From Spirulina sp. (GTDB lineage: Bacteria; Cyanobacteriota; Cyanobacteriia; Phormidesmidales; Phormidesmidaceae): a DNA stretch of 64,000 bases. Below, one piece after another: positions 2,991 to 47,466 of the stretch. The stretch lies in contig JBIPSI010000009.1 in the NCBI GenBank assembly GCA_044070495.1, positions 1 through 64,000 of the forward strand. The letters are read 5' to 3'. Numbering within the stretch: the first letter of the stretch is position 1; every line of letters starts with the position of its first letter. The notes beneath the pieces are model-generated. The model was not told the origin of the DNA and did no database searches. It saw only the letters and a program-made list of their open reading frames with translations. The translations under genes and the position numbers were made by a program.

Positions 2991-3560
2991 TCATTTTAAA
3001 CGCTTGGTGACCTTCCAGGCAATCTCCCCATTTTTGCGGTAGCCCGAGCGGCTGAAAATAAAACCCGCCTCAAAGAAGCGATCACCGTAACGCGCTATCT
3101 CCTGGGGCGACAGATCGATCAGATCAGCTAACTCTTGGGTGCTCAACAACCAGCCGTTACGGGCAGCGTTTTCTAATGTCTCAAAGTATCGGAGTGGGTC
3201 AGGCTGGTTAAACCCAATGCGCCCCACCACCTCAGACACAATGGCGCTGATTAATCCGCCAAAGTCATTGACCATGGGGGCCAGGTCAGAGCCGCTATCG
3301 TTTTGCCCACTGTCGCCAAAGCCCGGTTTCTGGCGCAGTCCCCGAGCCTCGATGAACTCTGGCGCACTGCCACCCTGGTTGATGAAGTTGTGCAGATCGT
3401 CCATCAGACGTAACTGCTGGTCATTGATAAAGGCTTTCTGCCCAATGCGTTCCGGGGTGATGCCCAATTGCTCCATGCGTTTGTACACCGCACTGCGCGC
3501 CAAGGCGTAGCGGCCCTGCAATTGGCCCACTGGAAAGCGATCAATCTCCCCTAGGTTCAT
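2991..3560 (-). CDS. Uncharacterised protein with two predicted HTH/winged-helix domains
   Basis: N-terminal VGQLQGRYALARSAVYKRMEQLGI (MerR/Xis-like HTH) and C-terminal LSTQELADLIDLSPQEI..AWKV. ATG 3560 preferred because the longer ORF runs through the repeat array. Confidence 0.7.
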   Translation of the reverse strand: MNLGEIDRFPVGQLQGRYALARSAVYKRMEQLGITPERIGQKAFINDQQLRLMDDLHNFINQGGSAPEFIEARGLRQKPGFGDSGQNDSGSDLAPMVNDFGGLISAIVSEVVGRIGFNQPDPLRYFETLENAARNGWLLSTQELADLIDLSPQEIARYGDRFFEAGFIFSRSGYRKNGEIAWKVTKRLK

Positions 3561-3563
3561 CAC

Positions 3564-3637
3564 TATCCTCTGGACAGTCCTCAGGATACTTCCTTCAGTA
3601 TTACCTACGGACTCGTCCTCTGGATAGTCCTCAGGAT
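3564..3637. repeat. Second array of the TCCTCWGGA motif, directly upstream of the HTH gene
   Basis: tatcctctggac-agtcctcaggat ... cgtcctctggat-agtcctcaggat; reverse orientation of the 2716-2775 motif. Confidence 0.85.
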
Positions 3638-3731
3638 AATTTTTGGCGTACTGACCATCGACGATTGCGCGCACTGACAAACAAGTCCCTCATCTGGAAT
3701 TTGAGCAGCACCTACGCTAGAACGCTGGTAC

Positions 3732-3799
3732 AGAAACCCAGTTTCTCAGCTCAAAGGTAGATGATCTCGTTAGAACAGCGATACAGAAACCGGGTTTCT
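3732..3799. repeat. Palindrome doublet AGAAACCCAGTTTCT-N38-AGAAACCGGGTTTCT (cyanobacterial REP-like)
   Basis: Two 15-bp near-palindromes at 3732-3746 and 3785-3799. Confidence 0.7.
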
Positions 3800-3889
3800 G
3801 ATCACCCCAGCCCAACGGTCGGCCCCCTAGGATGAACTGGGCCTGGTTTTCGCTATGGTAAAAGCAGCCCAGTAATTGAGGCTTCCGTG

Positions 3890-4459
3890 ATGACTCCTGC
3901 AACGAACCGCGTTCGATGGACAACGGCAGATCTGGCCCTGTTCCCCGACGATGACAGGCGCTACGAGATTATTGATGGAGAACTCATCGTGACCAGAGCA
4001 CCCAGATGGAGTCATCAGGAAGTGACTGGCCGAATCTTTGCGGCCCTCGATAACTGGTGCCAAGATACTGGGCTGGGGCGAACGGCCATTAACCCCGGCA
4101 TTATTTTCACCGATGAAGACAATGTGATTCCCGATGTGGTGTGGGCCAGCAACGAACGATTAGATACGCTGATGGATGAGGCAGAGCACCTCACCGGAGC
4201 GCCAGAGCTGGTGGTGGAAGTGCTATCCCTCGGCAAGAAAGATGAGCAGCGAGATCGCCAACTCAAACTCAAGCTGTATTCTCAGCAGGGGGTGCAGGAA
4301 TATTGGATTGTGGACAACACCCTCGGAGAAGTGCAGGTTTATCGTCGCGATCAGGCGGTGCTGACCCTGGCCATGACCCTACAATCGACCGATAGCCTCA
4401 CCTCGCCGCTGTTGCCGGATTTTTCCTGTCCCCTCAGCCGGATTTTTGTGAAGCGTTAG
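3890..4459 (+). CDS. Uma2 (DUF820) family PD-(D/E)XK endonuclease
   Basis: RYEIIDGEL, PDVVW, APELVVEVLS, KLKLYSQQGVQEYWIVD. Confidence 0.92.
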   Translation: MTPATNRVRWTTADLALFPDDDRRYEIIDGELIVTRAPRWSHQEVTGRIFAALDNWCQDTGLGRTAINPGIIFTDEDNVIPDVVWASNERLDTLMDEAEHLTGAPELVVEVLSLGKKDEQRDRQLKLKLYSQQGVQEYWIVDNTLGEVQVYRRDQAVLTLAMTLQSTDSLTSPLLPDFSCPLSRIFVKR

Positions 4460-4508
4460 TGGGCTGTGAGTCCATCTCCTTACCTACCCTAGGAGGGCTG
4501 AAATTCCT

Positions 4509-4877
4509 GTGAAACCCATAAGCCCGGAGGAAATGGCGGTGTTCAGACACCATCTGGCCCTACGCCAGCAAGCGGATCAACAGCGCCTTGCTCAACGGTT
4601 TGAGGCGGCGATGCAGGTGGTTCAAGCGGCCAATACCCTACTCAAGCAAGACTTTCAGGCCCAGGAGGTGATTCTGTTTGGGTCGCTGCTGCATCGGGAG
4701 CGGTTTCACCTGTCCTCGGATATTGACCTAGCGGTGCGTGGACTGGATCCGCTGGAGTACTTTACCGCTGTGGCCAAACTGCAAGATCTTTCCCCCTTCA
4801 AAATTGATTTGGTGCGGCTAGAGCGGTGCAAACCTAGTTTGGCGACTGTGATTGCGACGGAGGGAAAACCGCTATGA
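4509..4877 (+). CDS. Minimal nucleotidyltransferase (MntA-like antitoxin)
   Basis: LFGS-x10-DIDLAV motif; overlaps the downstream HEPN gene. Confidence 0.88.
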   Translation: MKPISPEEMAVFRHHLALRQQADQQRLAQRFEAAMQVVQAANTLLKQDFQAQEVILFGSLLHRERFHLSSDIDLAVRGLDPLEYFTAVAKLQDLSPFKIDLVRLERCKPSLATVIATEGKPL

Positions 4878-5365
4878 ATGGAGCCTATTTAGCAACAGCA
4901 GGCCGCATTCGACAAGAACTGACTGAACTGGATCAGGTTGTGGCACGGATTGAAAACATTTGGACTCGTCGCCGTCAGGAGCCTTTACCCGCCGAGCAAG
5001 ATTATTGGGTCGATGCCGTAGCGCTGAATTTGCACAGCTACTATGCCGGGGTCGAGCGCATCCTGGAACTGATTGCCGATGCGGTCGATCAGGCCAAGCC
5101 CAGTGGGGCGATGTGGCACCGAGACCTGCTGCAACAAATGACCGCCGATCTCTCCGGCATTCGTCCTGCGGTCTTGACTATCGCTACCCGCAACGCCCTA
5201 GATCGCTACCGAGGTTTTCGCCATGTGTTGCGAAATATCTACACCTTCAGTCTGGATGCTGAGCAGATTGAGCTGTTGGTGGTGCATTTACCCACCGTCT
5301 ATCTACAGGTCAAGGCTGAGCTAGAAGAGTGTGCGCGGTTTCTGGAACAATCGGCTCAGGGCTGA
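4874..5365 (+). CDS. HEPN-domain (HepT-like) toxin
   Basis: LHSYYAGVERILELIA..WHRDLL..YRGFRHVLRNIY; ATGA overlap with the MNT gene. Confidence 0.82.
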   Translation: MNGAYLATAGRIRQELTELDQVVARIENIWTRRRQEPLPAEQDYWVDAVALNLHSYYAGVERILELIADAVDQAKPSGAMWHRDLLQQMTADLSGIRPAVLTIATRNALDRYRGFRHVLRNIYTFSLDAEQIELLVVHLPTVYLQVKAELEECARFLEQSAQG

Positions 5366-5494
5366 GTGCTGTGGGCGCGGTTCTCTATGAGTCAGGAAGT
5401 TGCCACGGTGGCCCGGTCAACATAGGGGCCGTTAGTGGCAACGAGTTGGATGGCCGCAGAATAGATTAACCCAACACTTGCCAGCGGGGGCGGG

Positions 5495-6487
5495 CTATTC
5501 TGAATGGCCCTCAATGCCATGGACGCGCAGCAGATCGCCTAGGGTGGCGCAGTAGGGATCCATGCCAAAGCTAGCGGGGTTTACGGCCCCTTGGTAGACA
5601 AAGTGGCGGTATTGCAGACAGAAGTAATCCCAGGGGGCCATTTGCACGCGAAAAATACGAATCAGCAGGTTGGCCAAGCTGAGGGAAAGGGGCACCCGAA
5701 ACCAAATGCGTTGGCCAAAGTAGTCGCTAATTTGCTCGATGGCCTGATTTACAGAAAGAGGAGGATTGCCAATCACAAATTCTCGGTAGCCCGTCTGGGA
5801 CGGGTTTTCTAGCAGGTGGTTGATCACCGTCGCGATGTCTTGGGCGTGGGCAAAGTGAAACCCGGCATCGGCCTGGAGGAACCGCGCCAGCCCTGCCCAG
5901 CGGGTGACATCCTGTAAGCCAGCAGAAATAAACGAGTAGGGTTTATCTTTATCGCCACCAAAGACAAGGGTGGGGAACACCGTTGTGATTTTAGGGTAGA
6001 TGGCCAGTTCCGGTAGGCGCTGGTGGCATTCGTACTTACTGCGGATGTAGTCGGTGCCGATGGTGCCCGCCTCCGGGAGGGGCTGGCGATCTTGGGCCAA
6101 AATGCTGGCGGTAGAAAAGTAGATCACCTGCTGGCAGCGGTCTGGATCGAGCCGCGACATCAGACGCAAATTGTGATGGACGTTGGTGCCAAACACATAG
6201 TCAGGGTCGCCCCCCCAGGCCGCAGCGGTGAGGATGGCGATCTCAATGGTGGGCAGCAGGTCGGCGTACTGATCAATATCTGCCAGGCCACCCCGGAGGA
6301 TATGTACCCTAGGATGATCGGCCACGGGCAGGCGCAGCTTTTCGGGATGCCGCAGCAGCAGGTAAATGTCGTAGCGTTCTACCTGCAACAGCAGTTCGAG
6401 AATGTAGTGGCCAATGCAGCCGCTGGCCCCGGTCATCAAGACCCGTACGGAACCTGGGGGAGTGGAAGTTGACGCTGAAGTGTCCAA
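5495..6487 (-). CDS. NAD(P)-dependent epimerase/dehydratase family protein
   Basis: TGASGCIG Rossmann motif, YIRSK catalytic motif; start uncertain. Confidence 0.88.
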   Translation of the reverse strand: MDTSASTSTPPGSVRVLMTGASGCIGHYILELLLQVERYDIYLLLRHPEKLRLPVADHPRVHILRGGLADIDQYADLLPTIEIAILTAAAWGGDPDYVFGTNVHHNLRLMSRLDPDRCQQVIYFSTASILAQDRQPLPEAGTIGTDYIRSKYECHQRLPELAIYPKITTVFPTLVFGGDKDKPYSFISAGLQDVTRWAGLARFLQADAGFHFAHAQDIATVINHLLENPSQTGYREFVIGNPPLSVNQAIEQISDYFGQRIWFRVPLSLSLANLLIRIFRVQMAPWDYFCLQYRHFVYQGAVNPASFGMDPYCATLGDLLRVHGIEGHSE

Positions 6488-6797
6488 ATTGCTCTAGCCA
6501 ATCCTTATAAATCAACTCAATGGGCGCAAGGCCGCCCTTTCTATTCTCCCCTGCAAGGGGATGGAATCCAAGTCTAGGGAGTCGCACCACCGACACAAAC
6601 CGATTGAACAAATCCGCAATCCGTGAAATCTCGGTAAAGCTCATCGATTTCTCCGGTTGTTTGCGTAGGTTTTCGTAGAAGGTAGTGTCACAGGACGGGC
6701 CAGCCAGACCAAAGCCTGTGGCGACCGTCAGCGTGCCACCTCCCCCACGGGGGAAGCTCCATGGAGAGATTTTGGGCTGTTGTCATCGGGTTAATCT

Positions 6798-7322
6798 ATG
6801 TTTTTCCATCGTTGTGATCGATTAGGCCAAGGGCGACGACCTAGGGCTAGCGGCTTAGGGGCTACGGCCTCAGGGTTCACGCTGATTGAGCTGTTGGTCG
6901 TCATCGTGATTCTAGGGGTTCTAGCTAGTTTAGCGCTGCCTGCCTTCATGAATCAGGCGGCTCGCGCCAGGCAAACCAAGGCTCTCAACGCCGTGGGCGC
7001 GATGAACCGTGCCCAGCATAGCTTTTTTTACGAACATGCCAAATTTGCCAGTTCCATTGCCGAACTAGGTTTCGATCACCTGAACACCGAGGGCACCTAC
7101 TTGTACCAAGTGCGCGGCGGCAGCAAGGCCTCAACGATTGTGGCCGCCCCCACCGACCCCACCCTACGCGGCTATGCCGGACTGGCCTATCTCAACCGCG
7201 ACAACCAGGGCAATGCCATTTTGTCCTCCCTACTCTGTCAGGGCAGCCAAGGTAATGCCCCTGCCCCGGTATTAGTGAGCAACGGCAGCCAGGTCACCAC
7301 CAATGATTGTGATGCCATGTAG
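6798..7322 (+). CDS. Type IV pilin-like protein (PilA family)
   Basis: Prepilin cleavage/methylation site G|FTLIELLVVIVILGVL; C-terminal Cys pair. Confidence 0.9.
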   Translation: MFFHRCDRLGQGRRPRASGLGATASGFTLIELLVVIVILGVLASLALPAFMNQAARARQTKALNAVGAMNRAQHSFFYEHAKFASSIAELGFDHLNTEGTYLYQVRGGSKASTIVAAPTDPTLRGYAGLAYLNRDNQGNAILSSLLCQGSQGNAPAPVLVSNGSQVTTNDCDAM

Positions 7323-7334
7323 CCAACCAGGTCG

Positions 7335-8426
7335 CTAAATCCAGTCTTCGTCCTCATCGTCCCAGTTGCTAGCCTCTAGGCCGTCCTGAGATGGGCGGGT
7401 GGATGGGGCTGGCCCTGATGTGGATGGGGTATTGGTTTCCGACCTGGCTTCAGAAGCTGTTGCGGGGGCTGGGGGCTGGGGCGGTTCAGCGGAGGTAGCG
7501 TCTGAGGGGGCTGGGGATCCTGCGGGTGGATCGGCAGGGGAGATTGGCCCTGGGGAAGGCTGAGCGGCCTTGGACTGCGACGCAGCGGAGTCTGGGGTGG
7601 AGGATGCTGGGGACGGCGAGCGTTTGGCCAGGGATGAGGGCCGAGGCGGAATCTCGATCACAGGCTTTTTGGGTTTGGGGGTTGTTTTAGAGCGCACCAC
7701 CTCCTGCCCCCAAGTCACCAACCCCTGGACTCGTTGGCCCCAGGTGATTCCCTTGGCCCTAGGCGGCGGAGACAGAGCCACCCCTGGACGATTCTCCGCA
7801 GAGGGCGCTGCCGCAGATTGCGTCACAGCGGTCTGAAGCGATGGGGCTTGATTGCTTGGGGCTTGGGCCGCACGGGCTGGGGTGGTTCGGGTTGGCAGAG
7901 GAGAGGCCTGAGGCTCAGCCATGGCAGATCCAGGACGCCTAGGGGAACTTGTGGTTTCTGGTGGCTCAACGGAATCGACAAACTCGTAGCCCACATCCTT
8001 CAGGGCCGAAACCCGAATCCCTGGCCCCTGGGTGGGGGCTGAGACCGGATCGGGCAACCATCGGCGCAGGGGCGTTTGGCGCAGAGCCTCCAGGGCTAGG
8101 TCGGCCATTTCGCGGCGAAAGGTGGGCCAGGAATCGGCGGTGTAGGGGGTTTGCTGAGCTAGGGGGGTGCGCTTGCGGCGCAGGGTCAGGGTTTGCCAGC
8201 CCAGCCAACCCATGAGGCTAATGCTGGCCAGGTGCCCCACCAGTTCCGTTGGCGTGATCTGATCGGCATTGAACCACAGCACCAGGGCATAGAAACAGCC
8301 CACCCCGCTCCAAAAAAAGTCGTGGCGGCGGTGGACCTCTGGAAAGAAAAAGGCCGCCAGGTAAAGGGTGACGCTGCCCAGCCCCACGATGCCAGCCAAT
8401 ACCCCGGACAATAGTTGTGCCGCCAT
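7335..8426 (-). CDS. ycf66: Ycf66 family membrane protein with a Pro/Ser-rich tail
   Basis: LYLAAFFFPEVHRRHDFFWSGVGCFYALVLW is the typical Ycf66_N signature. Confidence 0.8.
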   Translation of the reverse strand: MAAQLLSGVLAGIVGLGSVTLYLAAFFFPEVHRRHDFFWSGVGCFYALVLWFNADQITPTELVGHLASISLMGWLGWQTLTLRRKRTPLAQQTPYTADSWPTFRREMADLALEALRQTPLRRWLPDPVSAPTQGPGIRVSALKDVGYEFVDSVEPPETTSSPRRPGSAMAEPQASPLPTRTTPARAAQAPSNQAPSLQTAVTQSAAAPSAENRPGVALSPPPRAKGITWGQRVQGLVTWGQEVVRSKTTPKPKKPVIEIPPRPSSLAKRSPSPASSTPDSAASQSKAAQPSPGPISPADPPAGSPAPSDATSAEPPQPPAPATASEARSETNTPSTSGPAPSTRPSQDGLEASNWDDEDEDWI

Positions 8427-8634
8427 GTCCCGAACCCGTTGTCCATCATGTCCACCCCACTCTATCGCAGCTCTGGCGCAGGTCTGGCGATGGCCTGATA
8501 CGAAATCCTGATGGATTTCCCCCTCTTGTGAAGGTGGGCAAAGATTCCGGTGGACGAAGATTTAGGTATTCACCGTGGTCGCCTCCTAGCATCGGTGGCC
8601 CTGACCAAGCAAAATCCAGGATAGAACGCCCACT

Positions 8635-8745
8635 TGTCACCTACTCCCCATTATCCAACTTGGCCAAATTCTCGCGGCAACGCACTGTCCAGGGGTGGTC
8701 GGCCCCTAGCTTGGGTTCGAGGATGGCCAGAGCTTGGTGGTAAAG
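8635..8745 (-). repeat. Orphan copy C of the 3' end of the NB-ARC/TPR gene
   Basis: 8657-8745 matches 10163-10251 at 86/89 nt; encodes YHQALAILEPKLGADHPWTVRCRENLAKLDNGE*. Confidence 0.93.
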
Positions 8746-8779
8746 CAAAGGTAAGGGGCGATACGTTGCTGAGTTCCCA

Positions 8780-9142
8780 TTAAATCGGCAGCACTCTTGC
8801 TCTGGCTTTATTCTCGTTAATGGTAATGAGGGCACCTGTTTCCAACTCCCCAGCAAATTGTTGAAGGGCGTTGAGTAGTAAATCAGCAGCCGTATCCGGG
8901 AAAATATTTTGACTCCGAAGTTGTATGACGCTGGGCGTTGTGTTTTGGCTGCTGGCAAGAATAGCGCCAAAATCGAGGTCATGGGTGAAGACGACGTAAT
9001 CATTCTCAGAGGCCCAAGCCATGATGGTTTTATCGCTAGCCCCTGGGTCGCCCACGTCTAACCAGTGGATGGCGCTGTGGCCAGATGCGTTCAGAACGGG
9101 CACCCAGTCAGGGGACAGGTTCATATCCAGAACAATCTTCAT
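8780..9142 (-). CDS. DUF5615 PIN-like toxin
   Basis: MKIVLDMNLS..D..I..WA...VVFTHDLDFG; overlaps the DUF433 gene. Confidence 0.9.
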   Translation of the reverse strand: MKIVLDMNLSPDWVPVLNASGHSAIHWLDVGDPGASDKTIMAWASENDYVVFTHDLDFGAILASSQNTTPSVIQLRSQNIFPDTAADLLLNALQQFAGELETGALITINENKARARVLPI

Positions 9143-9369
9143 GCTGAGGCGAGGGGTACTTCGATTTCATCGGCTCTCCAGGCGGCGTAGGACAGCGCTT
9201 CATAGATGTCTTCGGCTTCTAAATAGGGATAGGCCCGGAGGATTTCGTCAGTAGAATGCCCACTGGCTAAAAGCCCAACAAGGGTGCCTACCGTGACTCT
9301 CAGGCCCCGGATGCAGGGTTTCCCACCCATCACTTCGGGGTTCAAGGTAATGCGAGTTAGCGGTTTCAT
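9139..9369 (-). CDS. DUF433 antitoxin
   Basis: RITLNPEVMGGKPCIRGLRVTV..EILRAYPYLEAEDIYEALSYAA. Confidence 0.92.
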   Translation of the reverse strand: MKPLTRITLNPEVMGGKPCIRGLRVTVGTLVGLLASGHSTDEILRAYPYLEAEDIYEALSYAAWRADEIEVPLASA

Positions 9370-9429
9370 TGGCCTATTTCTAGTCCTGCTTTATGTTGAT
9401 GTTCTGATTCTCTGGGATGCTCTTGCGGC

Positions 9430-9518
9430 TGTCACCTATTCCCCATTATCCAACTTGGCCAAATTCTCGCGGCAGCGCACTGTCCAGGGGTGGTCGGCCC
9501 CTGCCAGGGCTTGCTGGT
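9430..9518 (-). repeat. Orphan copy B of the 3' end of the NB-ARC/TPR gene (18-bp internal deletion)
   Basis: Matches 10163-10247 except for the missing AGCTTGGGTTCGAGGATG; shares the LDNGE* tail with copy C. Confidence 0.92.
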
Positions 9519-9555
9519 GGCACAGGGGGTTAACTCACAGCGTATTCGGTGGCCA

Positions 9556-9834
9556 TCACGATTTTTTGTTGAGAATGCGATCATATTCTGCATGGGAGCC
9601 AATCCAAAACCAAATGATCTTTTCTTCTTGTGCTTTCATGGTTCCCAAGGCGCGCCAACCGATGCCAACTCTGACTGACCAAATGTTGAGTTTGGCGTTA
9701 ACCTTCTTAAACTCTAGGCTAGGATGGGAGGGATCTTCTTGCCAAAGCTGGTAGTTTTTCTTGGCGGTTTCCTGGACTCGGTTGGGCAGTTTGGCAAAGA
9801 GCTTACGAAAGTCCTGAGTTCTGGAAGATTTCAT
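9556..9834 (-). CDS. RelE/ParE-superfamily toxin
   Basis: 92 aa, basic; FRKLFAKLP..DPSHPSLEFKKV..WSVRVGIGWRAL..WFWIGSHAEYD. Confidence 0.82.
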   Translation of the reverse strand: MKSSRTQDFRKLFAKLPNRVQETAKKNYQLWQEDPSHPSLEFKKVNAKLNIWSVRVGIGWRALGTMKAQEEKIIWFWIGSHAEYDRILNKKS

Positions 9835-10061
9835 TACGCTTCACCAAAACCCCCGTCCTCGGTTTCGCCTGCTTCATCTGCGGCCAAAGCGGCTTGGGCC
9901 AGAGCTTCAAAACCACCCATATCAAGGTTGTCGTTGGCTAGGGTTGCTTGCCATTTCAGCTCATTCTCAATGTCGTTGAGCAATTGCTGAGCCAACTCGT
10001 CTTGCAGATCATCAGGTAGTTTCTGAGCTTCTTTGAAGGCGTATTCTAATAGTGTTGACAT
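9834..10061 (-). CDS. Putative cognate antitoxin
   Basis: 75 aa, acidic; TAATG stop/start coupling with the toxin; LLEYAFKEAQKLPDDLQDELA. Confidence 0.75.
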   Translation of the reverse strand: MSTLLEYAFKEAQKLPDDLQDELAQQLLNDIENELKWQATLANDNLDMGGFEALAQAALAADEAGETEDGGFGEA

Positions 10062-10143
10062 AGCGTACTCTCCCTTTTATTACATTAGAAATCAATGAGT
10101 TGCCGATGATATACGCGAGGGGTCTTACTTTCTCATTATCCCG

Positions 10144-13002
10144 CTACCCTTTGTCCTCGTCTAACTTGGCCAAATTCTCGCGGCAGCGCACTGTCCAGGG
10201 GTGGTCGGCCCCTAGCTTGGGTTCGAGGATGGCCAGGGCTTGCTGGTAAAGGGTACGCGCTTCCTCGGTGCGGCCTTGGGCGGCGTAGAGAATGCCTAGG
10301 TTTTCAGTAACTCGGCCAACATTGGGATGATCTTCACCGAGTGATTGCCGCCAAATCCGTAAGGCCTCACTCAAATATGGCTCGGCTTCGCCATAACGCC
10401 CCTGATCTCGATAAAGGTTAGCCAGATTATTGAGGCTAATGGCGACAGCGGGATGCTCGTCCCCCAAGAGCCGCTTGCGTGTTGCCAGGGACGACTGCAA
10501 GAGAGGTTCGGCCTCATCGTAAGACCCTTGATTGTAATGGAGCAAGGCCAGATTATTGAGGCTGGTGGCGACATCGAGATGCTCGTCACCTAAGAGCCGT
10601 TTCCACATCGCCAGGGCATCTTGGAAGAGGGGTTTGGCCTCCCCATAGCGCCCTTGATGGCCGTAGAGCCCAGCCAGATTATTGAGGCTGGCGGCGACAT
10701 CGGGATGCTCGTCACCTAAGAGCCGCTTGCGTGTTGCCAGGGCCGACTGCAAGAGAGGTTCGGCCTCATCGTAAGCCCCTTGATTGCAATGGAGCATCGC
10801 CAGATTATTGAGGCTAGTGGCGACATCGGGATGCTCGTCACCAAATAGTCGTTTCCACATCGTCAGAGCTTCTTGGAAGAGGGGTTTGGCCTCCCCATAA
10901 CGCCCTTGATGGTCGCAGAGCCCAGCCAGATTATTGAGGCTCCCGGCGACATCAGGATGCTCGTCGCCCAAGAGCCGTTTTCGCATCGCTAGGGCGTCTT
11001 GGAAGAGTGGTTCGGCCTCCCCATAACGGCCTTGTTTTTGGTAGAGAACGGCCAGATTATTGAGGCTAGTGGCGACATCGGGATGCTCGTCACCAAATAG
11101 TCGTTGATACATTGCTAGGGCTTGCTGATAGAGGGGTTCAGCCTCACTGTAGCGGCCTTGCAGTTCGTGGCTTCTGGCAGCGCTGTTTAAGCTGTCGGCG
11201 ATGTCTTCGTGTTCGTCCCCTAGAAGATTGCGCCGCAGGTCTAGCGCTTTCTGCAAGAGCGGGTCAGCCAGGGCATACTCTCCCCTTTCGAGTAAATACA
11301 TACCCATGTCGTGAAACACATCAGCAGCTTCCGTAGAGGCAATAGCGCGCTGCTGGCAGTAGGTAGATAGGTCTTGTACATGGTTTACCAGTGGGGCTAG
11401 GGCGGGCCAGTCTTGATATTCAATGCCTTTGCTCTTTTCTGGCAGCAGCTTTGCCATTGCCCTCAACAGCGGCTCTATCCAGCTTTGGCACCCGGCATCC
11501 CCCAATTCTGCCCGGATCACCTCCTGCAATAGACGATGCAGGCTAAAGCTCTGGTTCTCTGGCTCCACGCGCACCAAGGAATAGCGGCACAGCGGGTTCA
11601 GCAGGTCGTAGAGTTCTAGGGGGTCGTCGTCGGCATCGGCGAGGGCGGTGGCTAGGGGTTCGCCGAGTTCTGTGGCCCCCTGGGTGAACAGGTTAAAGGG
11701 AATGGCATCGGCATGGAGAAAGGCGCAGTAGTTCAGGAGGGCCGCAGCAGCGGGGGCTTCGGTCTGCACTTCCTTGAGGTTCAAGGCCCAGGTGGTGGTA
11801 ATGGATTCGGGGTATTGGCCGAGCTTGGGTTTAGCTTTTTCCAGGCGTTTTAGCCGCTGTTTGCGGTAGCTGGTGAGGTAGTCGCCAAAGGAGACTCGGT
11901 TGGTGACGATGTAGGCGGCGGCTTGCTCTAGGGCCAGGGGCAGGTAGCCCAGTTCGGCGGCGAGGGTGGTAGCGGTTTGCAGTTCGGCAGATTGCTTGTG
12001 GTCGGAGTTTTGATCCCCCCTAGCCCCCCTTATCGAAGGGGGGAACAGGTTGTCTAATAAGCCATCGGGTCTACTGCCCCCCTTTTCAAGGGGGGGTGGG
12101 GGGATCGAGCCTTGGCGTTGAATCGTCTGCCCATCGGGTTTGCCTGCCAACGGTTCTATCCGCTGCATTGGGCGCGTTCCCCGCGCCCCTACGAGATTCA
12201 TCCTGCCAGTGCGGGTCAGCAGGAAGGTGATGGCTTCCTCTGGGCTGAGGGTGGTCACCTCTAGGGGTTGCACAATGCCCAGGTCTTGGAAGTCTTGCGC
12301 CCTAGAGGTAATTAGGATGTGGCCCGTAATCTCGCGGGGGAGAAACGGCTGCACCCGTTCGGGGTGGTCGGCGTTGTCAAAAATCAGCAGCCAGCCCGCT
12401 TCTCGGCTCAGCCACAGCCGCACATACTGCACGGTTTCGTCCTGGTTTTCGGCATCCTTCAGGGGCAGGTTTAGCGCCTGGGCAATGGCGACATAGCTGT
12501 TGGTCAGTTCCAGTTCCGTATCAGCACGAATCCAGAAGACATGGCGATAGTCGTCGCGATAGCGGTAGGCATATTCCACCGCCGTTTGGGTTTTGCCAAT
12601 GCCGCCCAGCCCGCTAATCGCCTGGGTTTGGGAAATCGCCGCTGTCCGCCCCTCATGTAATTGCTGGTGCAGCGTTGCCAACACCTCCTCCCGCCCCGTG
12701 AAGTAGGGATTGCGGCCATAGGGCACCAGCCACGCGGGTTCGTCTTCCCTAGGCGCGGCATCTTCCCCAATCTTGAGGACGCCCGGAAAAAGCTGCTCCA
12801 GTTCCCCATACAGACGATCTAACCCACAGCCCGTCGATCCTTCTACCCAGCTCAGTAGCGCCGCCACTCGGTTGCCCTGGGCTGCTACTCCGGGGGGCAC
12901 CACTCCTGATGGTGGGTTGAGGGTGTATCGCAACAGCTCAAACTGCTCCGGTGGGAGCGCACTCAGGGTTTGAAAGAGGATGCGTCGTTGTTGGGAAGAC
13001 AT
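10144..13002 (-). CDS. STAND/NLR-like protein: N-terminal EAD/Death-like helical domain, NB-ARC NTPase and 42-aa TPR array
   Basis: RNPYFTGRE, Walker A GLGGIGKT, Walker B LLIFDNAD, GYLPLA, LHRLLQ; repeats EHPDVATSLNNLA..QGRYGEAEPL; ATG 13002 (alternative TTG 13032). Confidence 0.9.
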   Translation of the reverse strand: MSSQQRRILFQTLSALPPEQFELLRYTLNPPSGVVPPGVAAQGNRVAALLSWVEGSTGCGLDRLYGELEQLFPGVLKIGEDAAPREDEPAWLVPYGRNPYFTGREEVLATLHQQLHEGRTAAISQTQAISGLGGIGKTQTAVEYAYRYRDDYRHVFWIRADTELELTNSYVAIAQALNLPLKDAENQDETVQYVRLWLSREAGWLLIFDNADHPERVQPFLPREITGHILITSRAQDFQDLGIVQPLEVTTLSPEEAITFLLTRTGRMNLVGARGTRPMQRIEPLAGKPDGQTIQRQGSIPPPPLEKGGSRPDGLLDNLFPPSIRGARGDQNSDHKQSAELQTATTLAAELGYLPLALEQAAAYIVTNRVSFGDYLTSYRKQRLKRLEKAKPKLGQYPESITTTWALNLKEVQTEAPAAAALLNYCAFLHADAIPFNLFTQGATELGEPLATALADADDDPLELYDLLNPLCRYSLVRVEPENQSFSLHRLLQEVIRAELGDAGCQSWIEPLLRAMAKLLPEKSKGIEYQDWPALAPLVNHVQDLSTYCQQRAIASTEAADVFHDMGMYLLERGEYALADPLLQKALDLRRNLLGDEHEDIADSLNSAARSHELQGRYSEAEPLYQQALAMYQRLFGDEHPDVATSLNNLAVLYQKQGRYGEAEPLFQDALAMRKRLLGDEHPDVAGSLNNLAGLCDHQGRYGEAKPLFQEALTMWKRLFGDEHPDVATSLNNLAMLHCNQGAYDEAEPLLQSALATRKRLLGDEHPDVAASLNNLAGLYGHQGRYGEAKPLFQDALAMWKRLLGDEHLDVATSLNNLALLHYNQGSYDEAEPLLQSSLATRKRLLGDEHPAVAISLNNLANLYRDQGRYGEAEPYLSEALRIWRQSLGEDHPNVGRVTENLGILYAAQGRTEEARTLYQQALAILEPKLGADHPWTVRCRENLAKLDEDKG
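12012..12106. repeat. Double-hairpin GATCCCCC..GGGGGATC element inserted in frame in the NB-ARC gene
   Basis: Same family as intergenic copies at 44213-44288, 57951-58026 and 62103-62178. Confidence 0.88.
12170..12192 (-). repeat. GTAG-type REP inside the NB-ARC gene
   Basis: Minus strand GTAG-GGGCGCG-GGGAA-CGCGCCC. Confidence 0.7.
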
Positions 13003-13262
13003 CGGGACGCTGGAGGGGAAGGGTTGTGCCAATCGTAGCCTAGGATTCCAGGCCCTAGCGACCTACCTACGTGAGGACTGGGGGAATGCCGGGTTGATGG
13101 TGGGTGGTGCCCACCCTATGCTGACCTGCCGAGGACGGGGGCAATTCTGTAATTGAAAGGAAAAAGACAGCCTCGGCGGAGGATTTTCAGTAGATTGGTT
13201 AACGTTAGCCTGGGGGTGGAAAACGCCCCTGCTGCCGAGCGACCCGCCGTGAGGACTTCCCC

Positions 13263-14774
13263 ATGATTATTGACGACCAACATTACGATGTCATCATCAT
13301 TGGTACCGGGGCCGGAGGGGGTACCTTGGCTCGCAAGCTAGCTCCGTCGGGGAAGCGGATTTTGCTGCTGGAGCGGGGCGGCGCGATGCCCCTGGCGGAG
13401 CAGAACATCAGCGATGTGGATATTTTCCAAAAGCAGCGCTACCACGCCCCGGAACAGTGGTACGACGACATGGGCGAACCCTTCACGCCCCAAACCAAGT
13501 ACGCCATTGGCGGCAACACCAAAATCTACGGGGCCGCTCTGCAACGGATGCGGGAGAAGGACTTTGAAACCGTGGCCCACCAGGACGGCATTTCGCCGGA
13601 GTGGGATCTGAGCTACGGCGACTTTGAACCCTACTACACCGAGGCCGAAGCACTGTACCAAGTCCATGGCCAAGCTGGGGCTGACCCCACCGAGCCCAGC
13701 CGCAGCGGCGACTTTCCCTTTGCCGCCGTGCCCCACAACGAAACCATGCAGCCCGTGGTCGAAGAAATCGCTAAGCACGGTTGCCATCCCTACCCGCTGC
13801 CTATGTCCCTGTCGTTGCGGGAGGACGACCCCACCGGGGATGCGGAGGTGTTTGGGGTGGCTCCAGCTTTGGATTTTGGTAACGTCACCCTCAAAACCGA
13901 GGCCAAGGTGACGGGGCTGCACACCAACCCCGCCGGGACAGCGGTGAAAGCGGTGCAGGCGGAAGTTTCCGGTCAGCCTTACCTGTTCTTTGCGGACATT
14001 GTGGTGCTGGCCTGCGGGGCAGTGAACTCGGCGGCGATCCTGCTGCAATCCGCCAACGATAAGCATCCCCAGGGTTTGGCCAATCGCTCCGACCAGGTGG
14101 GCCGCAACCTGATGAAAATGCGGATGAGTTCCATCGTCGAAATCACCGCCCATTCCCACGATGGCCAGTTTCCCCGCTCCGTCGGCATCAACGACTACTA
14201 CTGGGGCGACAACCAGTTCCACTACCCCATGGGCCACATCCAAAACATGGGCGGCGTGCTGCAAGATGCCATCTTTGCCGAATCGCCCCCGGTGCTGTCG
14301 CTGATCACCAAGCTGATGCCCAACTTTGGCCTCAAGCAATTGGCCAATCGATCCATCGCCTGGTGGGTGATGACGGAGGTGCTGCCCGACCCCAAAAATC
14401 GGGTGGAGGTGAAAAAGGGTAAGCTCCACATCACCTTTAACCCCAACAACGCCGAGGCCCATGATCGCCTGGTGTACCGCTGGCTGGACGTGCTGAAATC
14501 CATTGAAAAAGATAGTAGCCTGTTCTCCCGTGCCGGAATGCATCCCCGTGGCGAAGTGCCCCTGCCCGTGATGGCCAACCAGTGCGGCACCTGCAAAATG
14601 GGCACCGACCCGGCCACTTCGGTGCTGGATCTCCACTGCCGCACCCACGACCTCGATAACCTCTATGTGGTCGATAGCAGCTTTTTCCCCTCCATCCCCA
14701 GCGTGGGGCCATGCCTGACCGTAATTGCCAACGCTCTGCGGGTGGGGGATCATCTGCTGGAGCGGCTACGCTAG
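13263..14774 (+). CDS. GMC family FAD oxidoreductase
   Basis: IIIGTGAGGG, GGNTKIYGA, LACGAVNS, CGTCKMG, NLYVVDSSFFPS. Confidence 0.92.
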   Translation: MIIDDQHYDVIIIGTGAGGGTLARKLAPSGKRILLLERGGAMPLAEQNISDVDIFQKQRYHAPEQWYDDMGEPFTPQTKYAIGGNTKIYGAALQRMREKDFETVAHQDGISPEWDLSYGDFEPYYTEAEALYQVHGQAGADPTEPSRSGDFPFAAVPHNETMQPVVEEIAKHGCHPYPLPMSLSLREDDPTGDAEVFGVAPALDFGNVTLKTEAKVTGLHTNPAGTAVKAVQAEVSGQPYLFFADIVVLACGAVNSAAILLQSANDKHPQGLANRSDQVGRNLMKMRMSSIVEITAHSHDGQFPRSVGINDYYWGDNQFHYPMGHIQNMGGVLQDAIFAESPPVLSLITKLMPNFGLKQLANRSIAWWVMTEVLPDPKNRVEVKKGKLHITFNPNNAEAHDRLVYRWLDVLKSIEKDSSLFSRAGMHPRGEVPLPVMANQCGTCKMGTDPATSVLDLHCRTHDLDNLYVVDSSFFPSIPSVGPCLTVIANALRVGDHLLERLR

Positions 14775-46123: not shown

Positions 46124-47344
46124 CTACCCGACCGACGGATCGAACTGCCGAAAACAGTCCACCAACACTACATTGGAGAACAGAAAACCTTCGGGATCGC
46201 TGAGCCGAATCCGCTGCACATTGTCCCAGGAATCTCCATCGATCACCACCCAACCCGCTTGAAGATGGGGCTTCAGAACCGCGTAGAGTTCGGCCCAGGT
46301 GTCGGCATCACACAGCGACCGCACCTCATCGCCAGCGATACCCTCCGCTAGCCGCAGCCCCACCATTAGCCGATCCAAAAACTGCTCCATGGTTGGGGTG
46401 GGTGGTTCGTCGTAAACGCTGCCCGATGCCTGGAAATTCTGCACCCACTGGCCATAGGTCGCTAGCGTTCGAGGCCGACTGACCCGCTGATGCTGGGTGT
46501 AGCTCGTTGCCCCCAGACCAAAGCCGTAGTAGGGCTGGTTGCGCCAGTAGGTGAGGTTGTGGCGGCAGCGGTGCCCCGGTTGGGCGTAGTTCGAGACTTC
46601 GTAATGCTCGTAACCCTGATCGGTCAAATAACGCTGGGCGGTGCAATACATGGCCGTCGTCTGCTGATCTGTCGGCAGGGGGGCATCTCCAGGCTGATAG
46701 CGCTTGGCAAACACCGTCTGGGGTTCCACCGTGAGGTCATACACCGATAGATGGTGCGGCCCTAGGTCAACCGCTTTGGACAGTCCTGTTTCCCAAATGT
46801 CCATGGTCAAATGGGGTAGGCCCGAAATCAAATCCAAACTCCAGTTCGGCATGGCGACTTGGTGCAGCCAGTCCACGGTTTGAACCACATCCACCACCCG
46901 GTGATAGCGGCCACAGCTTTCCAGGATGCGATCCTCCAACGCCTGCACCCCCAGGCTAATGCGGTTCACCCCTGCCCCCAGGTAGCCCTTCAGGTGATCT
47001 AAATCAAAGGTTCCCGGATCCATTTCCATGGAAATTTCTGCCTCTGGATCAATCCCAAACCGCTGATTCAACCCCGCCAAAATCCGCTGCACCTGCGCCA
47101 CCGACAGCAGGGAAGGCGTGCCGCCACCAAAAAACACCGTTTGCAGCGGTTCCCCTAAATTCGGCGTCGCTTGAATTTCCCGACACAGCACCTCCACATA
47201 GCCCTCTACGGACAGGGAGGTTTCCCCCCGCCGCTGGTTGCCCAATACGGAAATGGGGAAGTCGCAGTAGAAGCACCGCCGCCGACAAAAGGGAATGTGA
47301 ACGTAGGCCGAAAGGGGAGCAGGAGCCATGGAGGAGTGGGGCAT
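46124..47344 (-). CDS. hemW: Radical SAM heme chaperone (HemN-like)
   Basis: YVHIPFCRRRCFYCDF, FGGGTPS, YEVSNYA, HNLTYW. Confidence 0.9.
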   Translation of the reverse strand: MPHSSMAPAPLSAYVHIPFCRRRCFYCDFPISVLGNQRRGETSLSVEGYVEVLCREIQATPNLGEPLQTVFFGGGTPSLLSVAQVQRILAGLNQRFGIDPEAEISMEMDPGTFDLDHLKGYLGAGVNRISLGVQALEDRILESCGRYHRVVDVVQTVDWLHQVAMPNWSLDLISGLPHLTMDIWETGLSKAVDLGPHHLSVYDLTVEPQTVFAKRYQPGDAPLPTDQQTTAMYCTAQRYLTDQGYEHYEVSNYAQPGHRCRHNLTYWRNQPYYGFGLGATSYTQHQRVSRPRTLATYGQWVQNFQASGSVYDEPPTPTMEQFLDRLMVGLRLAEGIAGDEVRSLCDADTWAELYAVLKPHLQAGWVVIDGDSWDNVQRIRLSDPEGFLFSNVVLVDCFRQFDPSVG

Positions 47345-47466
47345 GATCGCAAGCTAGAAAAACGGCTGTGAATGTGAAGATCCATAGAGTTTGGGTTTAG
47401 ACAACGCTGGACGAGCCTTTTACCACCCTAGCCAACCAGAGACCCATGGAAATAGGAAGCCTATCG

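Follow-up and report, generated by a model that had tools for sequence, protein, structure and literature searches.

Restriction-modification (R-M) genes have been described to insert with a long target duplication (Furuta et al. 2010), and the available part of that account (PMC2853133) reports such insertions in Microcystis too, the species concerned being mostly naturally competent. For the arrays of Vibrio cholerae's type VI secretion system (T6SS), the available text of PMC5361080 proposes homologous recombination within a gene combined with an illegitimate junction in its old end, the same model that we favor below. Evidence for recombination at HIP1 (highly iterated palindrome 1) is cited in the accessible portion of a review (Elhai 2015, PMC4390886). 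Here we analyze a toxin-antitoxin (TA) array in Spirulina sp. (genome label G000), located in a 64,000-nt stretch of contig JBIPSI010000009.1 that we call the window and to which plain coordinates refer. On the minus strand of the window, two TA pairs are bracketed by a threefold repeat of the 3'-terminal ~90 bp of a gene encoding an NB-ARC and tetratricopeptide repeat (TPR) protein. Comparison with relatives indicates that the pairs were added one after the other behind this gene, each time stranding the previous gene end downstream. In the order of the minus strand, from the NB-ARC/TPR gene (13002-10144) through the 75-aa protein, the ParE-like toxin, copy B, DUF433, DUF5615 and copy C to ycf66, the features are:

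10144-13002, minus strand: NB-ARC/TPR gene of the STAND (signal transduction ATPases with numerous domains) type, 952 aa, ending LDEDKG-stop; Pfam NB-ARC (PF00931) over cut-off, DUF7779 and 42-aa TPR repeats, NCBIfam FxSxx_TPR over cut-off
10163-11362, minus strand: 1.2 kb of the TPR-coding region, at 100% identity to its counterpart in genome G005 (other G005 matches to this genome, 71-89%)
10144-10251, minus strand: copy A, the current gene end; 10251-10163 are the shared 89 nt and 10162-10144 the allele-specific end (LDEDKG-stop)
10135-10163, minus strand: sigma-70-like promoter match with its first hexamer in the gene's last codons, a weak candidate for the promoter of cassette 1
9834-10061, minus strand: putative antitoxin of cassette 1, 75 aa, no Pfam or NCBIfam match, role proposed from position and overlap with the toxin
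9556-9834, minus strand: RelE/ParE-like toxin of cassette 1, 92 aa (PF24732 over cut-off)
9530-9556, minus strand: xisI scar, the start and end of the gene fused by a 327-nt deletion across an ~11-nt repeat
9430-9518, minus strand: copy B, by sequence comparison an earlier gene end (LDNGE-stop) with an 18-nt deletion
9407-9435, minus strand: sigma-70-like promoter match beginning in the last bases of copy B, a weak candidate for the promoter of cassette 2
9139-9369, minus strand: DUF433 antitoxin of cassette 2, 76 aa (PF04255)
8780-9142, minus strand: DUF5615 PIN-like toxin of cassette 2, 120 aa (PF18480 over cut-off)
8746-8779, minus strand: 34-nt linker ahead of copy C
8635-8745, minus strand: copy C, the oldest gene end (LDNGE-stop)
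7335-8426, minus strand: ycf66, the downstream flank (PF07444)

We take ycf66, together with xisI and the HIP1 motif in relatives, to mark a cyanobacterial origin. The gene order, the TA genes and the coordinates of the three tail copies agree with a first-pass annotation of the region, and its description of the tails was equally accurate. Copies A and C are identical at 86 of 89 nt (88/92 by BLAST, E 1e-36). Copy B, which lacks 18 nt with the reading frame kept, starts 4 nt later than copy C and is identical to it at 71 of 73 nt, including LDNGE-stop and six bases beyond. The spacings between tail copies are 711 and 795 nt. The tail encodes the last TPR helix, the toxins being separate genes; TA genes alone lie between the copies, with no other mobile element inside, and the array is flanked by a GMC oxidoreductase gene and ycf66. 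Across the whole 5.3-Mb genome the tail is present at these three places only, and it is the sole non-tandem, non-intragenic repeat of its size in the window. The 34-nt linker before copy C gave no match in other loci, and the DUF5615 matches within the genus did not extend into it; the stretch between copy C and ycf66 (~8634-8526) matched nothing in 172 other genomes of the family, and an Rfam search of 7000-14000 gave no match. The two promoter-like sites, both on the coding strand, amount to a chance-level count (1.4 expected); G005 has the same site as that at the end of copy A.

The history of the locus can be followed in other alleles. An 854-nt contig from run X3 joins 191 nt of the gene (10345-10155, 22 differences) directly to 9443-8790 (10 differences). 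Its gene part extends 94 nt past the orphan start, and it represents an allele without cassette 1 and with another version of the gene end; a second X3 contig spans 8408-8660 with 2 differences. Since the first contig joins the gene body straight to cassette 2, copy B is the gene's former end. Genome G005 shares end A and cassette 1, its xisI being intact; behind them come a tail and ~50 nt of DUF433/DUF5615 left before hemN, and the junction sequences of G005 occur as loose ends in runs X1, X2 and X5, from three studies. The 1.2-kb identical tract points to a recent exchange with the G005 lineage. Besides, the xisI-tail junction is common to G000, G005 and G004, with different cargo and at three chromosomal sites. 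At the corresponding place in G005 and G004 xisI is intact and the 18-nt deletion of copy B is absent, while in G000 xisI has been reduced over a short repeat to 27 nt ahead of copy B's linker.

Read together, the X3 allele, the unit shared with G005 and the identical tract place end C first; DUF433/DUF5615 came next, together with end B, and antitoxin/ParE/xisI last, together with end A. A phase of decay followed, in which by the same comparisons xisI was deleted and 18 nt were lost from copy B. They also indicate that the unit moved between lineages and chromosomal sites with the gene as its anchor. Serial TA addition at the gene's 3' end, with the old end displaced and no integrase, was the proposal of the first-pass annotation, and the X3 contig and the other TA pairs found between tails in relatives bear it out. 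Elsewhere in the genome, G000:C17:18489-18948 (L108) holds a decayed second copy of cassette 1 plus the xisI start, 87% identical, with stop codons and no tail. The hemN gene of the window (47330-47400) has neither gene nor tail ahead of it; G005 and G019 carry them there.

The layout recurs in relatives. Matches to the 151-nt gene end were present in 21 of the 53 genomes of the genus; with G023 dropped and G002 added, the tail-bearing genomes again numbered 21 of 53; the G023 match and the second matches in G061 and G004 were ordinary TPR repeats and were discarded. At least two same-strand tails occur in seven of these 21 genomes (G000, G005, G004, G015, G017, G012 and G021), and, outside the genus, in one (G080) of 11 loci, a set in which many lie on short contigs. 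TA genes, which differ between relatives, lie between the tails in all eight two-tail genomes. Five distinct junctions account for the arrays: the xisI-tail junction (G000 copy B, G005, G004); the DUF5615-tail junction, which is copy C; a junction on the MazF side that includes a small fold-back at HIP1 (G015 and G017, eroded in G012); a DUF2281/PIN junction in G021, where the cassette is on the opposite strand; and an HNH-tail junction in G080, in which the HNH gene's end has a seven-base match to the tail, a visible microhomology. The arrays outlast the loss of the gene body in G017, G012 and G021. The first-pass annotation described the cassettes as delimited by the tails; both G004 and G080 stack three modules without intervening tails, so tails are not required as boundaries. 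According to these results, this is a genuine layout that recurs within a cyanobacterial family, and the two-tail arrays arose through at least five separate junctions. Searches with exact degenerate tail patterns returned two stretches of one record in genome contigs (a layout already known and left uncounted) and two single-tail metagenome contigs; the xisI junction pattern had no match in metagenome contigs.

We then placed 12 junctions on window-equivalent coordinates. The orphan tails are ~60 to ~245 bp long (~245 bp for the G183 remnant), and their starts are spread over ~180 nt, from ~10400 to ~10220. By raw count, seven of these starts cluster in ~16 nt around 10258-10251, a place at which HIP1 is found in many alleles, and four, in HIP1-rich relatives, begin exactly at the HIP1 octamer; the remaining five lie from ~140 nt upstream to 30 nt downstream of the cluster. 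The close starts of copies B and C had suggested a fixed crossover site. What the 12 junctions display is a preference, not a fixed site. In seven junctions the gene body was lost and the tail spared: at the argG site (G017, G012 and G031), at the ABC site in G017, and in G002, G019, G016, G021/G022 and G183. The long loci of the relatives have about one HIP1 per 700-1600 bp. HIP1 is missing from the G005, G019 and G027 loci, and the HIP1 sites listed for G000 cluster in a few stretches (C12:52166-60569 and C16:90474-111549) that are probably recent imports from HIP1-rich relatives.

The gene occupies differing chromosomal sites among the genomes of the genus. It adjoins GMC oxidoreductase in G000 and G075, precedes hemN in G005, lies near argG in G018, G015, G064 and, by shared neighbors, G065, and adjoins an ABC transporter in G068, G061, G076, G069 and G065. 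It is frequently broken or deleted (G018, G021, G075), and many of the toxins behind it are truncated. Upstream of ycf66, other neighbors are found in G005, G019, G027 and G075. Pairs related to these TA pairs are also present in genomes with no tail match (G062, G025 and G070, at 71-73%; G067 and G008). Inside the NB-ARC gene, 11958-12266 is a variable in-frame stretch holding a 40-nt repeat with many genome copies; relatives have other sequence in its place, and the G075 gene breaks off there. A hairpin repeat with GGTGCC/GGCACC arms stands directly behind the gene end in many relatives (L054, L060, L061, L065, L075, L109, L112, L115), and in G012 it is duplicated along with the tail. The window also holds, at 3887-5365, a Uma2 endonuclease gene followed by a nucleotidyltransferase/HepT-like TA pair.

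As a control, we used the 17 DUF433 loci of this genome: 14 had no long high-identity flanking repeat and three did, the present array being one of them. A second, on C5, is a TA cluster by a second NB-ARC/TPR gene, lying between two copies of a nucleotidyltransferase antitoxin gene (~330 nt, 92% over 300). The third, on C1 (L170:644-1864), is a DUF433/DUF5615 pair with a 103-nt copy (91%) of a small gene's start. These two loci are bracketed by other genes, so long duplications around TA pairs are not confined to the NB-ARC/TPR gene and use other targets too. For the genome's other TPR genes, the stretches inspected downstream did not contain a second copy of the respective 3' end. At the C5 locus (L105:2250-7851), the second NB-ARC/TPR gene has the same N-terminal domain and faces a cluster of HEPN/MNT, DUF2283 twice, HicB and DUF433/DUF5615; the cluster has a duplicated MNT gene, and an Arm DNA-binding integrase fragment lies upstream.

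How did the tails come to lie behind new cassettes? Our preferred explanation, which we hold to be slightly better than an even bet, is homologous recombination in the gene combined with an illegitimate, microhomology-based junction in the old end, followed by spread with the gene and the tail as homology arms. Donor DNA, consisting of a relative's same gene and a different downstream TA pair, would recombine by homology within the gene, and its far end would be joined to recipient DNA within the old gene end, through a short stretch of microhomology that often coincides with or adjoins the HIP1 palindrome ~100 nt ahead of the stop codon. With an end supplied by the donor the gene would be whole again, and the old end would be stranded behind the new cassette. 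Once a cassette-tail junction exists, gene and tail would act as two homology arms, so that the unit could enter any allele of the gene, at any chromosomal site, by ordinary recombination, and be lost by the same route. The order of events, the shared junctions, the recent exchange and the variable breakpoints are documented by alignment; transformation, involvement of RecA and addiction would be further parts of the mechanism. Speaking for the preferred explanation are the X3 allele, the shared xisI-tail junction, the 1.2-kb identity, the five junctions, the microhomology in G080 and the lack of tandems in the loci read. Several points weigh against it. The evidence for the X3 allele is one contig at depth 4. 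The X3 contig lacks cassette 1, but the empty site that the first-pass annotation had suggested looking for, an allele without cassette 2 and with the gene directly before ycf66, turned up in none of the relatives searched. This genome has 104 HIP1 sites against 81 for the control, about chance level, and copy A has none, so any role of HIP1 would be confined to the donor or an ancestor. The genome has comEC and dprA, but competence genes are also present in 10 of 14 control genomes, so these show little. All of the evidence, moreover, comes from comparing sequences. Finally, at the seven junctions where the gene body was deleted, the tails that stay behind are the same and favor the same starts, so the first step could itself be a deletion in a tandem intermediate.

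That last point leads to a tandem route, which we consider rather unlikely yet deserving of weight. A circle or fragment with the whole gene and a TA pair would integrate by a single crossover to give gene-TA-gene, and the second body would then be deleted to the HIP1 or microhomology site, its end being spared perhaps as a promoter of the next TA operon. The tails that survived loss of the gene body in G017 (two sites), G012, G031, G002, G019, G016, G021, G022 and G183 fit such a route, as does the start of three of the seven tail-spared junctions at the HIP1 octamer, and a circular-intermediate model has been proposed for Rhs in the available part of PMC2935791. The promoter-like sites beginning in the last bases of A and B would suit a spared promoter, but their number is that expected by chance, and the spared tails of G019, G002, G183 and G016 have no same-strand TA operon behind them. 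A shared junction such as xisI-tail, moreover, spreads without any new tandem. Erosion of whole tandem TPR paralogs with variable breakpoints had been named as what would overturn the original proposal; variable breakpoints were indeed seen, but no tandem whole or half-length second copy of the gene was present in any locus read. An integrase acting in trans on the tail as its att site, be it a tyrosine recombinase or an integron integrase, appears very improbable. Seven of the 12 junctions fall close together, and three tyrosine-recombinase frames pass the cut-off elsewhere in the genome, but the scatter of the other five largely refutes this reading, and no recombinase was found among the 13 open reading frames (ORFs) scanned in 2991-14774, nor any PF00589 match on this contig. 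The folds at the array do not resemble attC (six folds, z -0.61 to +0.92). A GTTRRRY word does occur in A, B and C where A departs from B and C, but it follows from the K-L-D codons, and B and C share 19 bases past it, contrary to cassette logic. As for an assembly artefact at the repeat, no read set of the exact arrangement was found and the best run holds 0.24 of its words; but the three copies differ from one another, and G005 has the same gene-cassette-tail order, with its junctions in runs of three studies, which makes an artefact barely credible.

One could argue that the array was selected for defense, with the TPR protein detecting phage and the downstream TA toxins serving as exchangeable effectors or back-ups, in line with the coupling to a STAND sensor that the first-pass annotation had proposed. 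The next downstream gene is a TA gene or TA remnant in 10 of the 14 gene-bearing loci of the genus, a descriptive count, since the loci are kin and exchange DNA and thus are not independent; two of its antitoxin calls were made from location ahead of a gene for a MazF-like or HNH protein, and for one of the two NCBIfam gave a sub-threshold match to RelN. In three genera (G000, and G080 and G087 in two others) the gene's end is followed by a close DUF433 allele, and TPR-bearing STAND proteins include phage sensors, according to the available text of PMC13581612. The protein has the architecture of a STAND NTPase with a C-terminal TPR sensor; no enzymatic N-terminal effector or known defense profile was found in it, and PADLOC gave generic TPR matches only. 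Its residues 1-90 have no Pfam match, and as a lead only they may form a helical adaptor like EAD1/EAD7 of the effector-associated domains (EAD), with an Atlas feature score of 0.83 against a bar of 0.9. For EAD-type domains, recruitment of partners that share the domain has been proposed (Kaur et al. 2020, PMC7159879, in its available part), but the N-terminal domain, though present in 11 further frames of the genome, is found in none of the cassettes, and the sequence data gave no tie of the toxins to the sensor. Add to this the arrays that persist without the gene body, the cassette on the opposite strand and the truncated toxins, and a sensor with exchangeable effectors seems improbable, and this part of the proposal finds no support. 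Most likely, the TA pairs are retained as addiction modules riding on the gene, and a new immune system is not indicated on present evidence. A broader scheme is doubtful to a similar degree: the last helix would be a family-wide, integrase-free landing pad, HIP1 would seed the first junction, RecA would circulate TA cassettes via the tails, and selection would favor the arrangement since the toxins would act as the sensor's exchangeable outputs or guards when phages attack. In G004, L070:5153-7993 is a gene with the same C-terminal helix and a TIR domain at the N-terminus.

Cyanobacterial TA pairs usually have no transposase or integrase alongside. The locus offers a traceable natural case of such pairs moving between lineages through a patchily distributed gene, the second homology arm being that gene's displaced end. 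In addition, it provides naturally formed junctions at HIP1, a motif without an established function. The locus is exchanged between lineages rich in HIP1 and lineages poor in it, and an effect of the octamer on the choice of junction is therefore open to direct testing in this group.

Set against the known systems, the array shares much with the insertions of Furuta et al. 2010 as the available part of PMC2853133 describes them: addiction-type genes lie between variable-length direct repeats longer than 30 bp (here 89 nt for A/C and 73 nt for B/C), and the inserts, at the spacings given above, are far below 20 kb and contain no other mobile element. In contrast to those insertions, the cargo here is type II TA pairs (ParE-like, DUF433, DUF5615) and not R-M genes, and the same target has been used repeatedly and across genera. 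End A differs from B and C, so the restored end would come from the donor allele, which makes the event more a displacement than a target copy. The array also resembles the Rhs tips (Jackson et al. 2009, PMC2935791) and the T6SS arrays of V. cholerae (Kirchberger et al. 2017, PMC5361080), which, in the portions available, likewise have a constant upstream anchor, the newest module first, variable-length old ends pushed downstream, no integrase and later spread by homologous recombination. As in Rhs, contact-dependent inhibition (CDI) and T6SS arrays, the orphan fragments are near-identical to the upstream gene and variable in length; unlike what those accounts describe, the displaced piece here lacks a toxin domain and alters just the final ~five residues, and the cargo consists of separate intracellular TA operons. 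Integron cassettes would have attC hairpins and intI/attI beside the array, neither of which was found here, and a site-specific 3'-end integrative element would have a fixed crossover, which the ~180-nt spread of the 12 junctions does not show. The junctions at the octamer in HIP1-rich relatives are akin to HIP1-associated recombination as covered in the accessible portion of Elhai 2015 (PMC4390886), but this genome has lost HIP1, whose role would at most be one of junction preference. Like the EAD-bearing STAND/AP-ATPase-TPR proteins of multicellular bacteria (PMC7159879, in part), the gene product combines a small helical N-terminal domain, found in a dozen proteins of the genome and replaced by TIR in G004, with NB-ARC and TPR; the EAD identity is a lead only here, and linkage to TA genes does not appear in the available part of that account. 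We found no description of TA cassettes flanked by repeated ends of a TPR gene in the literature searched, most subscription papers lying outside the search. By analogy, then, the locus appears to work like long-target-duplication insertion and like Rhs/T6SS displacement, each of which lacks a defining feature in it, and what would be new is the anchor and the cargo.

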